DNA of 64,000 nt from a phage. The stretch lies in the NCBI GenBank assembly GCA_021469345.1, contig GCA_021469345.1_3049.1; one strand, written 5' to 3'. The stretch's first letter is position 1, and each line of letters opens with the position of its first letter. The translations under genes were made by a program, and so were the position numbers. The notes under the pieces are model-generated. The model had not been told where the DNA came from. It saw nothing but the letters and a program-made list of their open reading frames with translations, and did not search any database. This document shows, piece after piece, positions 6,974-11,694 of the stretch.

Positions 6974-7435
6974 ATGATTATTAATGAAAACTCTTGGCAC
7001 TATAAATTATTCAAATTGTTTAACGATGAATGGCAACGACCTAAGACGCTGTGCGCATACTTTTGGTCTATTGTTATCCCTACATTTTTCGTTTCTTTTT
7101 TCGGATGTACTATACTCGTAGGTCTAACTATCATCTGCGCAGAAATCATGCAGAAATGGCTTATTTTTGGTAGTTTATGGACTCTTATTCCATCAGCATT
7201 TATACTTGCTATTTTGCTTGTTTTACTTATTATTGGTTCATTTGTTATTCCTGCACAACTGCATGAAAAATATAAAGATTATAAATGGAAAAAGGATTAT
7301 GCTTTACATGTAGAAAATATTGATAGGGCGTATAAAGGTTTACCTCCTATTCAACCCAAGAAATCTATTATCGTCGAATTTTTAAAAGCTCGTAAAGCTA
7401 AAGTATGTCCTGTTATTGAATATAAGGCTGAATGA
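6974..7435 (+). CDS. integral membrane protein (multi-TM)
   Basis: 153 aa; long hydrophobic stretches (FWSIVIPTFFVSFFGCTILVGL..., LILAILLVLLIIGSFVIPA). Confidence 0.6.
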   Translation: MIINENSWHYKLFKLFNDEWQRPKTLCAYFWSIVIPTFFVSFFGCTILVGLTIICAEIMQKWLIFGSLWTLIPSAFILAILLVLLIIGSFVIPAQLHEKYKDYKWKKDYALHVENIDRAYKGLPPIQPKKSIIVEFLKARKAKVCPVIEYKAE

Positions 7436-8445
7436 TGAAAACAGTAATGAAAAGCTATTTTGGTAGTTATCTTTATGGAACTTCTACCCCAGAATCTGAT
7501 GTAGATTTTAAAGAAATCTTTGTTCCTCCTGCTCGTGATATTCTTATTGGAAATGTTAAAGAGCACATGAGTAAAAACACTAACAACACATCATCTAAAA
7601 ACACTAAAGATGATATTGACCATGAACTATACAGTCTTAAATATTTCTTTAAATTAGCAGCAGATGGTGAAACTATAGCATTGGATATGCTTCACACTCC
7701 ACCTGAACTAGTGGTTAAATCTGATTTGCCTGATGTGTGGAAGTTTATTCAAGACAACCGTTCTCGTTTTTATACGACTAGCATGAAATCATATTTAGGA
7801 TATGTCCGCAAGCAGGCTTCTAAATACGGTGTCAAGGGTTCTCGTTTGGCTGCATTACGCGATGTATTGAAAGTAGTTAATCAAATCCCTGAGCAATGGG
7901 TTGATTACCAAGAAGACGGTTCCATTAAGCAGCGTCGTACTAAAGTTGAAGATATTAAGCATCGTCTTCCAGAAAACGAATTCTGTGAATGGGTGTTCCA
8001 TAATCATGAGAAAACAGGCCCGCAAACGTTCTACACTGTGTTGGGTCGTAAATATCAGACAACGCTTTCTCTTATTGAGCTTAAGCAGTCACTGAACAAA
8101 TTAGATGCTGAATATGGTGAACGTGCTCGTAAGGCCGAAGCCAATGAAGGCATTGACTGGAAAGCTCTGAGTCATGCTTGTCGTGGTGGACTTCAACTAT
8201 TGGAAATTTACAAAACTGGTGACTTGGTTTATCCACTTCAAGACGCTCCATTTATTCTCGACGTGAAGTTGGGTAAACATCCATTTAAAACGGTTCAAGA
8301 GTTTTTGGAAGATGTGGTTGATCAAGTAGAAGCAGCATCTACTGAAGCTTCTAAGAACGGTATGCAGCAAAAAGTAGACATGAGTTTCTGGGATGACTTC
8401 CTTGAGAAGGTGTATCTCGAAAACCATCGAAGTTATTATAAATGA
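7432..8445 (+). CDS. predicted nucleotidyltransferase (Pol-beta superfamily fold)
   Basis: 337 aa; N-terminal GS-x-YGTSTPESDVDF matches the [GS]-x9-13-D-x-[DE] NTase signature. Confidence 0.65.
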   Translation: MMKTVMKSYFGSYLYGTSTPESDVDFKEIFVPPARDILIGNVKEHMSKNTNNTSSKNTKDDIDHELYSLKYFFKLAADGETIALDMLHTPPELVVKSDLPDVWKFIQDNRSRFYTTSMKSYLGYVRKQASKYGVKGSRLAALRDVLKVVNQIPEQWVDYQEDGSIKQRRTKVEDIKHRLPENEFCEWVFHNHEKTGPQTFYTVLGRKYQTTLSLIELKQSLNKLDAEYGERARKAEANEGIDWKALSHACRGGLQLLEIYKTGDLVYPLQDAPFILDVKLGKHPFKTVQEFLEDVVDQVEAASTEASKNGMQQKVDMSFWDDFLEKVYLENHRSYYK

Positions 8446-8495: not shown

Positions 8496-8525
8496 GTTTA
8501 CAAGCATAAAGCTTTATGGTACTAT
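8496..8525 (+). promoter_or_regulatory. early promoter (GTTTAC-N18-TGgTACTAT), member of repeated promoter family
   Basis: GTTTAC 8496-8501; TACTAT 8520-8525; conserved AAAATTTTTCACAAAACT upstream. Confidence 0.55.
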
Positions 8526-8561
8526 ACAACTATCAAAACAAACACTTAAACGGAAAACAAA

Positions 8562-8711
8562 ATGAAAATTACACCAATTGAAGTAAAAAAGTTGATTGAT
8601 ACAGAAGAAATTTCAGAGTGTTTTGAAAGTTTCTTAGAAGACGCAACTGAAGATAACGCGGTTTATCTTGCCCAGAAAATTATCGAAACTTATTTGGAGA
8701 AGAATCAATGA
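8562..8711 (+). CDS. hypothetical small acidic protein (49 aa)
   Basis: ATG 8562; stop overlaps next start (ATGA). Confidence 0.35.
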   Translation: MKITPIEVKKLIDTEEISECFESFLEDATEDNAVYLAQKIIETYLEKNQ

Positions 8712-8971
8712 CAGTTTACGTAGATGTTTTAATGAATCATGGATGGAAACTTCGCGGTCATCCAACTAAAAATTGTCATATGTTCACTGATGGAGATATT
8801 GAAGAGCTTCACGAAATGGCAGAAGCAATAGGAATGAAACGTTCTTGGTTTCAAGATAAACGCATTAAACATTATGACTTACACGCTCGGCGACGCCAAA
8901 AAGCTGTAGAACTTGGAGCTGTAGAAGTATCTCGTCGCGAAGCAGTAAAAATTTGGCAAACATTAAAATAA
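8708..8971 (+). CDS. hypothetical protein
   Basis: 87-aa ORF; MTVYVDVLMNHGWKLRGHPTKNCHMFTDGD... Confidence 0.55.
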   Translation: MTVYVDVLMNHGWKLRGHPTKNCHMFTDGDIEELHEMAEAIGMKRSWFQDKRIKHYDLHARRRQKAVELGAVEVSRREAVKIWQTLK

Positions 8972-8974
8972 ATT

Positions 8975-9004
8975 GTTTACAGCAGGGTAGTAGTGTGATA
9001 CTAT
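8975..9004 (+). promoter_or_regulatory. early promoter (GTTTAC-N18-TGaTACTAT)
   Basis: GTTTAC 8975-8980, TACTAT 8999-9004. Confidence 0.5.
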
Positions 9005-9040
9005 TACCCTATCAAAACAAATGTGAAATTGGAGAATAAA

Positions 9041-10009
9041 ATGAAAACTGTAACTATCAATAAGGGTATCTACTTCGGTAAAGAAATCTCTGGAACTTTT
9101 GAGCTCTTAGGTGAATGGTTCCCAGATAATGCTCCGGTAGATGCACAAGGAGATGGTAAAGTTTTTGTTGAAATTGACGGTAAACGTCGCGGTGTTTGGG
9201 TTTACAAATCAGACATTTCATATGATGGTGTAAAAGTTGAAGAAGTTAAAGAATCGTATGAAGATATGAAAACCCGCATTAATAAAAGATTTAATGTTAT
9301 GGGAATGATGACGAATGGTATTATTAATGGAAATATTCGTTCATTAATTATCTCTGGCGCAGCAGGTATTGGTAAAACGTATTCTTTAGATAAAGCTTTA
9401 AATAAAGCAAATGATAATGGATACATTGAATATAAAAGCATTAATGGTAAAATCTCTGGTATCGGTCTTTATGAACAGCTCTGGAATAATCGTGAAGAGA
9501 ATTCTGTCCTTTTGATTGATGATGTGGATGTTTTCTCTGATATGGACATTCTTAATCTTCTAAAAGCCGCTCTGGACACTGGAGAGACCCGTAAAGTCTG
9601 CTGGAGCACTGCATCTTCTTACTTAGAAGAAAAAGGCATTGACCGTGAGTTTGAATTTAAAGGAACGATTGTTTTTATCACAAACGTTGACATTGACCGC
9701 GAATTAGACCGCGGTACTAAACTTGCTCCACATTTACAAGCATTAGTGTCCCGCTCAGTTTATTTGGATTTGGGTGTTCACACCAATGAAGAAATTATGG
9801 TCAGGGTTGAAGATGTTATTCTTTCAACTGACATGATGCAAAAGCGCGGTCTTTCTGATGAAGAAACTTATAAAGCATTATCATGGATGAAAGTTAATGT
9901 TAATCGTTTACGCAATGTTTCACTGCGTACTGCTCTTTATCTTGCTGACTTTATTATGACCGACAAAAATCATTGGGAAGAAATTGCTGAAACGGTATTA
10001 TTAAAATGA
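9041..10009 (+). CDS. AAA+ family ATPase
   Basis: 322 aa from ATG 9041 (RBS GGAG); Walker A GAAGIGKT, Walker B LLIDDVD, sensor-1 like FITNVD. Confidence 0.7.
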   Translation: MKTVTINKGIYFGKEISGTFELLGEWFPDNAPVDAQGDGKVFVEIDGKRRGVWVYKSDISYDGVKVEEVKESYEDMKTRINKRFNVMGMMTNGIINGNIRSLIISGAAGIGKTYSLDKALNKANDNGYIEYKSINGKISGIGLYEQLWNNREENSVLLIDDVDVFSDMDILNLLKAALDTGETRKVCWSTASSYLEEKGIDREFEFKGTIVFITNVDIDRELDRGTKLAPHLQALVSRSVYLDLGVHTNEEIMVRVEDVILSTDMMQKRGLSDEETYKALSWMKVNVNRLRNVSLRTALYLADFIMTDKNHWEEIAETVLLK

Positions 10010-10725
10010 AAAAATATTTTACTATCTATAAAACTGAAATATTAAATTTAAAGACAGGTATTAAGAAATACTATTATGGTCGACATATAACTAATAACAT
10101 CAATGATTCGTATGTTGGTAGTGGAAATTATATAGAACGTGTAAAAGTGTCAAATGACCACATATTATCAAAAACGGTTTTAGAAGTTTTTGATAATTAT
10201 GATAAAATGGTACAAGCTGAAATATTATATATCATGGCAGGTAAATTGAAATATGGAAAAAACTGTGTTAACCTGTCATACGGGGGTGAAGGAGGAAAGG
10301 TTGCAGATGAAACTAGGATAAAATGCAAAAAGCATTCTATAAATTTATGGAAAAATCCTAATCATATACAGCATATGAAGAAAAAGATGAAAGAGGTCAC
10401 ATCCACGCCGGAAGCTAAATTAAACACTTCAATAAAAACTTCGCAACGATATAAGGACCCAGTTTTTGTTAGAAAAGTTAGTAATATTATTAAAAAGAAA
10501 CTAAGCAATCCTACAGTAAAAGAAAAGCATATTAATGGAATTAAAGCTGCAAAGCGTTCTCATTTAACTATATGGCAGTATGAAGATGAATTATTCGAGC
10601 TTTGGAAAGAAACTAAATATGGATGGAGAAAATTTACAAAGGAAGCTATAAAACACGGATATCCAAATGAACCGTATCGTAGTATGGTATCAACTTTTCA
10701 GAAAAGACATTTAGAAGAATCCTAA
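10006..10725 (+). CDS. GIY-YIG family homing endonuclease (Seg-like)
   Basis: 239 aa; N-terminal YFTIYKTEILNLKTGIKKYYYGRH...YVGSG matches GIY-x10-YIG module; basic C-terminal region. Confidence 0.75.
   Translation: MKKYFTIYKTEILNLKTGIKKYYYGRHITNNINDSYVGSGNYIERVKVSNDHILSKTVLEVFDNYDKMVQAEILYIMAGKLKYGKNCVNLSYGGEGGKVADETRIKCKKHSINLWKNPNHIQHMKKKMKEVTSTPEAKLNTSIKTSQRYKDPVFVRKVSNIIKKKLSNPTVKEKHINGIKAAKRSHLTIWQYEDELFELWKETKYGWRKFTKEAIKHGYPNEPYRSMVSTFQKRHLEES
10006..10725 (+). mobile_element. free-standing homing endonuclease gene (seg-type)
   Basis: GIY-YIG ORF embedded between accessory genes, ATGA-coupled to the upstream ATPase gene. Confidence 0.55.
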
Positions 10726-10807
10726 GACAAAAAGGCAGTTCAGAAATAGATTATATGGACTGCCATTAAAAAGATGACTAGAATTAAACTGGTAAACGGA
10801 GGTAGTG

Positions 10808-11110
10808 ATGTTATACTCAAAGGCTCGTGAAATTTACGAAACTAAAATTAAAGAAGCAGTATTTCAGTTCGCAACAACAATGCGATGGACAAATGACTGT
10901 GAGTATTCAAAAAATCATAAGAAGCCCATGGTGACAAGAAAGGCTCATATGTTAGTGTTAATAGACCGCGAGCAGATTAAAGCCCGAGAAGCCCTCCAGA
11001 ATCATAAAAAGGCTGCCTTTGAATGGTTTATGGATAACACTGCTCCTGAGACTAAGAAAGCAGTAAGCGCATGGTTCAGTGGAAAAAATTGCGAAAGAAG
11101 TTTCTTTTAG
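10808..11110 (+). CDS. hypothetical protein
   Basis: 100 aa from ATG 10808, RBS GGAGG. Confidence 0.5.
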   Translation: MLYSKAREIYETKIKEAVFQFATTMRWTNDCEYSKNHKKPMVTRKAHMLVLIDREQIKAREALQNHKKAAFEWFMDNTAPETKKAVSAWFSGKNCERSFF

Positions 11111-11170: not shown

Positions 11171-11443
11171 ATGAACGCTAAAGATATTTTCAACCTGGTA
11201 AATTACAACGATGGTAAATTTAAATCTGAAGCACAAAGCAAGTTCTTTAATGACATCTCAATCGGAGGTGAAATCACTGTTGATGGAGGACAAATTTACA
11301 AATCCCGTTGGAATTGGATCGTTATTATCGATGAGATTGGTATTGTAGAAATTTATAAAAATACGAAAATCGTGCATTACACTGGTCTCGTGATACTAAC
11401 GAACAGTACAAAAAGGATAAAGCATCTAAATTATCTCGTGTAA
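11171..11443 (+). CDS. hypothetical protein
   Basis: 90-aa ORF, RBS GGAGGA. Confidence 0.5.
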   Translation: MNAKDIFNLVNYNDGKFKSEAQSKFFNDISIGGEITVDGGQIYKSRWNWIVIIDEIGIVEIYKNTKIVHYTGLVILTNSTKRIKHLNYLV

Positions 11444-11478
11444 CTCAAGAAGATATTGAGTTCATCAAGAAAGATATT

Positions 11479-11694
11479 TTGATGTATGATAACTTAATTG
11501 CTGAAGAGCAAGCTGTTATTGATAAATTTGATGAGATTAAAGCTTCTCGTGAAATTCCTGATTTTATGAAAGAATCAGTAAATGAACGATACACTCTCAT
11601 TTCAGAGCGTATTGAAACTTACAAAAAGCAAAGAGCTGAACGCCAAAATACTCTTCGGAAGTTTGAAGAACGGTTAAAGACGGTACTCGCATAA
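11479..11694 (+). CDS. hypothetical small protein
   Basis: 71-aa ORF. Confidence 0.45.
   Translation: MMYDNLIAEEQAVIDKFDEIKASREIPDFMKESVNERYTLISERIETYKKQRAERQNTLRKFEERLKTVLA

Follow-up and report, generated by a model that had tools for sequence, protein, structure and literature searches.

What kind of gene fills the interval between nrdC.10 and nrdC.9 in a T4-like coliphage, and does it still behave as a mobile element? The window, by which we mean the whole 64-kb stretch of DNA analyzed here, derives from a Tequatrovirus. Judged from its sequence, the open reading frame (ORF) at 10006–10725 is intact and very probably a selfish element of the Seg/GIY-YIG type, encoding a homing endonuclease and residing at the nrdC.10/nrdC.9 locus. 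The locus is composed as follows.

8975..9015, + strand: predicted early promoter of the T4 type (GTTTACA-N17-TACTAT) preceding nrdC.10, identified by a consensus scan and as a member of the three-copy repeat family D1
9041..10009, + strand: nrdC.10, a conserved AAA-like gene (RB32 and T4 annotation), adjoining the element and overlapping it with its 3′ end
10006..10725, + strand: predicted 239-aa homing endonuclease ORF (Seg-like, GIY-YIG), known in RB32 as RB32ORF093c and with an orthologue in T6
10734..10764, + strand: hairpin with a 9-bp stem and a 13-nt loop in the nrdC.10–nrdC.9 spacer (RNA fold z = -2.5)
10808..11110, + strand: nrdC.9 (DUF7203), the downstream neighbour (Pfam DUF7203, E = 4.8e-15; T4 and RB32 annotation)

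The reading frame is intact on the + strand, running from an ATG at 10006 to a TAA stop at 10723–10725, and the N-terminus quoted by the first-pass annotation was confirmed in the 239-aa translation. Its ATG (10006–10008) overlaps the TGA stop of nrdC.10 (10007–10009), bearing out the ATGA coupling that had been proposed. The accompanying description of the upstream gene as an ATPase is plausible from a Walker-A-like GAAGIGKT motif and weakly supported by Pfam, where the AAA/P-loop matches stay sub-threshold (E about 1e-4). The ORF stands alone between nrdC.10 and nrdC.9 and is not contained in an intron or intein, both neighbours being intact without splicing. Scored with the family profile it yielded E = 1.5e-59, as the sole such ORF within the window, and a chance reading frame at this position was ruled out by conservation together with the profile scores. 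Comparison of six copies of the gene gave 16 synonymous versus 8 non-synonymous variable sites, and thus the ORF is under purifying selection.

None of the Pfam and NCBIfam models was reached by the ORF product even at E ≤ 1, phmmer against the PDB sequences returned noise with nothing significant, and Foldseek against the PDB likewise gave no significant match. PHROG 314, 'homing endonuclease', matched at E = 1.9e-30. I-TevI is the structural archetype of GIY-YIG homing endonucleases, and a profile–profile comparison with it by hhalign resulted in a probability of 92.9% and E = 3.8e-7, using a shallow I-TevI profile made from the 9 near-identical relatives that a word-indexed protein search had provided. 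The residue pairs aligned (ORF product/I-TevI) were Y8/Y6, Y23/Y17, G25/G19, E72/E75 and N89/N90. An hmmsearch of the family profile against I-TevI was weak (E = 0.18), and the word-indexed search with the ORF product as query gave 2 relatives. At E ≤ 1e-3 the ORF product has 1423 relatives; Pfam matches among 78 aligned relatives were to SegE_GIY-YIG (35), GIY-YIG (27) and NUMOD3 (26). The AlphaFold model reached a pLDDT of 95.5 (41.7 for a single-sequence model, which was unusable), and the three-stranded sheet and the helices of the GIY-YIG fold are present in the product. The BFVD contained 98 matches at E ≤ 1e-3, mostly Seg-like endonucleases. Together, PHROG 314, the hhalign match to I-TevI and the invariant Tyr/Tyr-x-Gly/Glu/Asn set corroborate the Seg-family GIY-YIG identity suggested in the first-pass annotation. 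The product can be divided into three parts:

10006..10296, + strand: GIY-YIG catalytic domain (aa 1–97), with strands 4–14, 20–29 and 52–62 and helices 41–48 and 65–86
10309..10563, + strand: five tandem 17-aa basic helical repeats (aa 102–186), NUMOD3-like, each ending in Pro or His
10564..10719, + strand: C-terminal module of ~50 aa with three helices, W..DEL..LW...G.R.F.K.A...GYPN..Y..MV..F

Within the catalytic domain, the family-invariant residues are Y8, Y23, G25, H27, D34, Y36, G38, G40, E72 and N89, and all of them are intact in the window's copy. The GIY motif corresponds to T6-I7-Y8, with Y8 invariant in the 78 relatives, and the YIG motif to Y23-Y24-G25, with Y23 conserved in 77/78 and G25 in 78/78. 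The metal-binding Glu (E72) and the C-terminal Asn (N89) are each invariant (78/78), and both hmmsearch and hhalign align them to I-TevI E75 and N90, respectively. The N-terminal motif pointed out earlier does contain a GIY-YIG module, but the YVGSG at 36–40, which had been counted as its part, is a separate, subfamily-specific motif.

The definition of the GIY-YIG class includes a central catalytic Arg, R27 on helix α-1 of I-TevI (PMC1564403). In the hhalign alignment, I-TevI residues 21–29 (AKDFEKRWK, including R27) fall in a 9-residue gap; the helix carrying R27 is deleted in the ORF product, where strands 2 and 3 are linked by a single short helix, and the family alignment of 78 relatives has no invariant Arg column. 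The first-pass annotation had held that absence of the conserved Arg and Glu would speak against a GIY-YIG enzyme; the Glu is present as E72, whereas the canonical Arg lies in the gap. We do not take the missing aligned Arg as a refutation, because the same arrangement is shared by the proven enzyme SegB and by SegH, whose activity is said to have been demonstrated in a published study: in SegB, SegH and the ORF product alike, no Arg aligns to I-TevI R27. Two candidates could, from the alignments, substitute for it. H27 is His in 76/78 and Arg in 2/78 relatives and aligns to I-TevI R30, next to H31; R45 aligns to I-TevI R47, and K or R is found at column 44 or 45 in 66/78.

Both Seg enzymes share further features with the ORF product. 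SegB (T4/T6, in the tRNA gene cluster) is 27.5% identical to it over 166 aa and has the same catalytic motif set, but passes the Pfam GIY-YIG threshold (28.3 bits), which the ORF product does not, and differs in locus, target (tRNA T-psi-C sequences) and C-terminal half. SegB has been proven to cleave DNA site-specifically and to bring about its own preferential inheritance (PMC2330249). SegH (RB3, LZ2 and U5; between nrdD and nrdG; GenBank record AY262138, annotated 'homing endonuclease') is likewise a free-standing T-even GIY-YIG endonuclease, 31% identical to the ORF product over the first 151 aa, with the common motif set Y..., Y.G.H.T...D.Y.GSG, E, N and GG.GG and a start that overlaps the upstream gene. 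Its locus and target are different, and it carries Pfam-recognisable NUMOD3 and I-TevI-type DNA-binding domains, in contrast to the divergent 17-aa repeats and the other C-terminal module of the ORF product. I-TevI itself is encoded by the td intron of T4, unlike the free-standing ORF, and has a zinc finger and HTH that the ORF product lacks.

The C-terminal half, suggested earlier to be basic and possibly DNA-binding, is basic in part. Residues 98–186 are strongly basic (24 K+R versus 6 D+E), and the AlphaFold model places the helices of the repeat region at 101–116, 118–132, 135–149, 152–166 and 169–190; these repeats would be laid out along the bound DNA. Charge is balanced in the last 53 residues, and the terminal three-helix module, which resembles homeodomain/HTH folds, is presumed to be the sequence-reading DNA-binding domain. 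The five basic repeats, the NUMOD3 matches in 26/78 relatives and the homeodomain/HTH-like end are consistent with a DNA-binding function of this half.

Aligning the flanks with phages that lack the ORF, as the first-pass annotation had advised, revealed an empty site with sharp junctions. The DNA that distinguishes the two alleles is delimited as follows.

9991..10721, + strand: occupied-specific DNA, 731 nt replacing 34 nt of the common empty allele, with no flanking duplication
9989..10009, + strand: recoded last seven codons of nrdC.10, GAAACGGTATTATTAAAATGA = ETVLLK* versus GAGGTTACTCTTCTGAAATAA = EVTLLK* in the empty alleles, containing the ATGA overlap

Compared with T4, 733 nt (9989–10721) stand in place of 38 nt; in T4 the GAGGTTACTCTTCTGAAATAA stretch has two insertions of 1 nt each. 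The junctions, read by BLAST against T4, P8, WilhelmHis, e11/2, PYPS2T and ASO78A, were identical across the 6 occupied and 6 empty phages compared, and around the insertion we found no flanking direct repeat, no transposon-like target duplication and no terminal inverted repeats. The GC content of the occupied-specific DNA (9991–10721) is 29.5%, versus 36–39% for the flanks. Among ~500 related phage records with the locus, ~67 (~13%; 67 counted at ≥ 95% identity) carry the gene and ~433, T4 included, are empty, in agreement with the earlier view of a free-standing gene varying among T-even phages. The locus spans in the sampled rows fell into two classes only, 1733–1734 nt or 1035–1038 nt. 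Exact-pattern scans of IMG/VR found the occupied junction in 1 contig and the empty junction in 2, too few for a frequency estimate.

The tail of nrdC.10 differs between occupied and empty alleles at 12 of 21 nt, compared with flanks that are ~97% identical, and from its sequence this recoded tail is presumed to be the region of target-site immunity, with nrdC.10 as the probable target gene. A long co-conversion haplotype was not supported, as SNPs in the ~900 nt flanking either side form a mosaic that is unlinked to occupancy except at -19..-17. The variant at these positions (TCA or CCA, part of TCAT/CCAT) occurs beside occupied sites only, in 4/6, which fits short, variable co-conversion tracts. 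Beyond Tequatrovirus, a homologue 46% identical lies directly after the nrdC.10 homologue of a Klebsiella phage (Jiaodavirus), this upstream gene being 74% identical to nrdC.10, and a homologue with an in-frame stop directly follows the nrdC.10 homologue of Serratia phage 92A1. Since other genera carry homologues at this locus, the earlier claim that the insertion is recent is not established.

From the predicted expression signals, the gene would be part of the transcription unit of its neighbour. The early promoter at 8975–9015 is the sole promoter-like site positioned to drive the ORF; neither a promoter of its own nor a late promoter (TATAAATA) was found in or before it. RNA structure hiding the start codon did not exceed shuffled controls (z = -0.8). 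The spacer hairpin is identical in 12/12 compared phages, occupied and empty; being present in both allele types, it therefore belongs to the flank and not to the element.

We propose that the gene would be transcribed early from the nrdC.10 promoter and translated at a low level via termination–reinitiation, using the ATGA overlap. When an empty-site phage infects the same cell, the C-terminal modules would bind its DNA either at the end of nrdC.10 or in the spacer next to it, and a single GIY-YIG active site, in which E72 coordinates one metal ion, would make a double-strand break nearby. Repair of this break by phage recombination from the occupied genome would copy in the gene and some flanking markers, resulting in localized marker exclusion, whereas recoding and splitting of the target would protect the occupied allele from cleavage. 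A more far-reaching version, which we consider tentative, holds that the large Seg subfamily to which the ORF product, SegB and SegH belong cuts DNA without the canonical Arg, with the invariant loop H-x-T-x4-D-x-Y-x-G-S-G in the place of helix α-1 and either His27 or the basic pair 44/45 doing the job of the Arg, and that the ORF enzyme in addition has its target in the conserved final codons of nrdC.10 in three phage genera, carrying its own recoded replacement tail for that gene.

The alternative that survives best, though we regard it as unlikely, is a homing relic: an open frame at a late stage of the homing-endonuclease life cycle that no longer cuts or moves and is heading to decay. Apart from the absent canonical Arg and the lack of a long co-conversion haplotype in the flank SNPs, this would be in line with the state of copies elsewhere. 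According to the BFVD, the RB3 product is split into 96 + 159 aa and the AR1 product truncated to 165 aa, and the RB10 and FL12 copies match in two tblastn pieces, so that these four appear broken, as does the Serratia 92A1 homologue by its in-frame stop. The window's copy, however, retains every family-invariant residue and encodes a protein that matches its NIC06P2 counterpart at 100% identity and its T6 counterpart at 99.6%, and the mainly synonymous variation in the six copies (16 to 8) does not suggest decay. Furthermore, the empty sites in most related genomes mean that targets remain, and SegB and SegH are active also without an aligned Arg.

Less probable still, and improbable overall, is a nuclease kept mainly for the benefit of the phage, either by cutting rival phage genomes or by starting recombination that amplifies useful genes elsewhere. 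A precedent exists in T6, where anti-defence loci, among them the nearby gp49.1–nrdC.1 region, undergo segmental amplification driven by SegB (PMC13096335), and both the relaxed cutting specificity of GIY-YIG Seg enzymes (PMC2330249) and the purifying selection on the ORF would be compatible with such a role. Nothing in the sequence indicates a second target, however, and sharp presence or absence at one site, with the same locus used in three genera, is the pattern expected of simple homing; a benefit to the phage would in any case not conflict with homing. That the product is instead a DNA-binding regulator of the neighbouring early genes with its nuclease function lost, as the large basic helical region, the HTH-like terminal module and the absent canonical Arg might suggest, is highly improbable, since the window's copy retains the metal-binding Glu, the two Tyr and the Asn that are invariant in the set of 78 relatives. 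In addition, 87% of close relatives lack the gene while their neighbouring genes are otherwise identical, so that no conserved regulatory role is needed.

Under the preferred reading of a homing endonuclease gene, the importance of the locus beyond correct annotation is small, as it adds one more uncharacterised member to the well-studied Seg family. Within the hypervariable nrdC–mobD region of T-even genomes it indicates a hot spot of recombination, and with the empty and occupied alleles defined to the base, a cleavage or homing test is easy to set up. A Seg subfamily without the textbook catalytic Arg position also bears on the choice of GIY-YIG nuclease domains for engineering.

The gene is already known, many GenBank records labelling it a seg-like endonuclease. 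RB32ORF093c and the T6, RB14, RB33, RB7 and AR1 orthologues represent the same gene (98.7–100% protein identity); they share the nrdC.10/nrdC.9 position and the ATGA overlap and differ by few substitutions. RB32ORF093c has been labelled 'putative site-specific intron-like DNA endonuclease, similar to seg' since 2006. Searching the literature for nrdC.10, nrdC.9 or RB32 with seg, we found no paper naming or testing the window's gene, and to our knowledge none of these copies has been assayed or assigned a letter in the seg series. A tally of 'seg-like GIY-YIG' homing endonuclease genes covers RB32, RB14 and T6, with per-genome counts and no gene list (PMC2993671), and the orthologues of these three phages fall within it. 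The AR1 and RB68 copies are mislabelled segE; the window's gene is not orthologous to T4 segE, which adjoins uvsW and whose insertion site is given as inh/uvsW (PMC2988022) or hoc.1–uvsW (PMC2330249).

The window belongs to a Tequatrovirus (T4-like coliphage), its + strand corresponding to the T4 minus strand, and contains a 239-codon ORF at 10006–10725 (+). Its ATG (10006–10008) shares bases with the TGA of nrdC.10 (10007–10009) in an ATGA overlap; this overlap with the upstream gene and the N-terminus were both seen in the sequence as the first-pass annotation had given them. The TAA stop (10723–10725) lies inside sequence common to genomes without the ORF. Searched with a profile from relatives, it was the sole ORF of its kind across the 64-kb window (E = 1.5e-59).

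Local gene order around the endonuclease ORF (window coordinates)
6974–7435, 153-aa ORF replacing mobD, as in RB32; first in the order
7432–8445, nrdC.11, nucleotidyltransferase
8562–8711 and 8708–8971, two small ORFs between nrdC.11 and nrdC.10, the latter DUF4031
9041–10009, nrdC.10, Walker-A-like motif, AAA matches all sub-threshold
10006–10725, + strand, endonuclease ORF between nrdC.10 and nrdC.9
10808–11110, nrdC.9, DUF7203, downstream of the endonuclease ORF
Next after nrdC.9, nrdC.8

The 153-aa ORF, which has a membrane-protein-like look, occupies the place of the T4 HNH gene mobD and is 92% identical to RB32ORF096c (annotated 'replaces mobD'); mobD is thus absent from this genome. Further along, nrdC.8 (11171–11694) is broken by a 4-nt deletion (AATA, at about 11366) relative to RB32, RB7 and P8, turning the usual 528-nt gene into two ORFs of 90 and 71 aa. 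Either a true pseudogene or an error in sequencing could lie behind this.

The single query protein gave no match in a Pfam and NCBIfam scan, nor did phmmer against PDB sequences or Foldseek against PDB return anything. The more sensitive tests agreed with one another. PHROG 314 'homing endonuclease' matched over the full length (E = 1.9e-30), an exhaustive HMMER scan yielded 1423 cluster representatives at E ≤ 1e-3, and 78 aligned relatives included Pfam matches to SegE_GIY-YIG (35/78), GIY-YIG (27/78) and NUMOD3 (26/78). Profile–profile comparison aligned the protein with I-TevI (92.9% probability, E = 3.8e-7), pairing Y8/Y6, Y23/Y17, G25/G19, E72/E75 and N89/N90. AlphaFold with the 78-sequence alignment produced a confident model (mean pLDDT 95.5). 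Predicted viral structures gave 98 matches at E ≤ 1e-3, for the most part Seg-like endonucleases. One of them is P04523 of T4, whose entry reads just 'DNA replication protein' and which is probably SegF (formerly gp69). The initial reading, a Seg-type GIY-YIG homing endonuclease gene that is free-standing and varies among T-even phages, is correct in substance, with its nuclease activity, cleavage site and part in marker exclusion putative.

Of the two catalytic residues named in the first-pass annotation, the Glu was found, and for the canonical Arg the alignment gave no counterpart. E72 is invariant in 78/78 relatives, as are N89, Y8, G25, D34, Y36, G38 and G40, with Y23, H27, T29 and S39 nearly so. 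In contrast, I-TevI residues 21–29 (AKDFEKRWK, R27 included) fall in a gap of the hhalign alignment, and strands 2 and 3 of the predicted model are separated by a single short helix (41–48), against two in I-TevI. No invariant Arg column was present in the 78-relative alignment. Candidate substitutes are H27, a position with His in 76 relatives and Arg in two, and the basic pair 44/45, K or R in 66/78 and here including R45, aligned with I-TevI R47. Exactly the same motif arrangement occurs in T4 SegB and RB3 SegH. The GenBank record of SegH labels it a homing endonuclease, and its activity was reportedly shown in an earlier study. SegB scores above the Pfam GIY-YIG threshold and is a proven site-specific endonuclease (PMC2330249). 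Since both share the arrangement, the absent Arg position probably does not speak against nuclease function and, by analogy, appears to be a trait of an active subfamily.

Residues 102–186 form five tandem 17-residue repeats with one predicted helix apiece, in order ETRIKCKKHSINLWKNP, NHIQHMKKKMKEVTSTP, EAKLNTSIKTSQRYKDP, VFVRKVSNIIKKKLSNP and TVKEKHINGIKAAKRSH, and the span holding them (98–186) contains 24 K+R versus 6 D+E. They resemble the NUMOD3 helices of relatives and score below the Pfam model. At the C-terminus lies a module of ~50 aa (10564–10719; W..DEL..LW...G.R.F.K.A...GYPN..Y..MV..F), which other GIY-YIG proteins (P0011, P0015, P0041, P0114 and P0132) carry once or in up to three tandem copies. 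It matched no Pfam family, and homing endonucleases may have in it a DNA-binding module not described before.

The gene is already known, being annotated as a seg-like endonuclease in many records. It and RB32ORF093c ('putative site-specific intron-like DNA endonuclease, similar to seg') are one gene, copies in T6, RB14, RB33, RB7, RB68, AR1 and many recent isolates show 98.7–100% protein identity, and some records wrongly label it segE. Petrov et al. tallied seg-like HEGs for RB32, RB14 and T6 (PMC2993671); our literature search found no paper naming or testing this particular gene. Least ordinary are the Arg position, which the subfamily lacks in its textbook form, and the repeated module at the C-terminus, which is uncurated.

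Variation among T-even phages, as originally proposed, was borne out: 67 of ~500 phage records with both flanks carry the ORF, and spans in evenly sampled rows were either 1733–1734 nt (6 rows) or 1035–1038 nt (39 rows), without intermediates. The suggested alignment with phages lacking the ORF likewise gave a clear replacement, of 38 nt by 733 nt (9989–10721) relative to T4 and of 34 nt by 731 nt (9991–10721) relative to the commoner empty allele (P8, WilhelmHis, e11/2, PYPS2T and ASO78A). The insert has 29.5% GC versus 36–39% in its neighbours, and no direct or inverted repeats were found flanking it. In empty genomes nrdC.10 closes with the seven codons GAGGTTACTCTTCTGAAATAA (EVTLLK-stop), in occupied ones with GAAACGGTATTATTAAAATGA (ETVLLK-stop); the two differ at 12 of 21 nt, with adjoining flanks ~97% identical. 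Judged from sequence, such recoding would be expected if the target took in the nrdC.10 end and occupied alleles were immune. Seen solely in occupied genomes (4/6) is a three-base variant (TCA or CCA), 17–19 nt upstream of the GCT codon with which the shared left flank closes at 9988. It would be compatible, tenuously, with short, variable co-conversion tracts; the remaining flank polymorphisms are mosaic. The T4 empty allele (T4 locus record, 7750–7843, corresponding to window 9989–10721) differs from the common one by two 1-nt insertions, which frameshift the nrdC.10 tail to ATGYSSEINS-stop in place of AEVTLLK-stop. T4 may be a poorer substrate, if the target sits in this stretch.

The insertion need not be as recent as first supposed, given that other genera have homologues at this very locus. 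Klebsiella phage KEN25_1 (Jiaodavirus) has a 46%-identical homologue directly behind a 74%-identical nrdC.10, and Serratia phage 92A1 (2501–3214 of its locus record) has one directly behind its nrdC.10 homologue, with an in-frame stop at codon 18. Other copies also look disrupted, being split into 96 + 159 aa in RB3, 165 aa long in AR1 (BFVD product lengths) and matched in two pieces by tblastn in RB10 and FL12. Homologues at this locus in several genera, with broken copies among them, make up the pattern of invasion and decay that homing endonuclease genes typically show. In the window the gene is intact, and the 16 synonymous versus 8 non-synonymous differing sites among six compared copies suggest purifying selection.

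T4-type early promoters (GTTTACA-N17-TACTAT) are predicted at 8496, 8975 and 11113. Our scan found none between nrdC.10 and the ORF, no late-promoter TATAAATA near the ORF, no evident Shine–Dalgarno sequence before its ATG and no stable hairpin there (z = -0.8). Early co-transcription with nrdC.10 would be the likeliest route of expression, with low-level coupled translation probably occurring at the ATGA. In the Klebsiella and Serratia copies, the start lies 8–9 nt past the nrdC.10 stop, without overlap. In the spacer before nrdC.9, a hairpin at 10734–10764 (9-bp stem GGCAGTTCA/TGGACTGCC, 13-nt loop, no U-tract behind) has the same sequence in occupied and empty genomes. Early promoter blocks at 8496–8536 and 8975–9015 flank the cassette of the two small ORFs (8496–9015 region), which is present in P8, WilhelmHis and ASO78A and absent from T4 and RB32, a second presence/absence polymorphism ~1 kb from the endonuclease gene.
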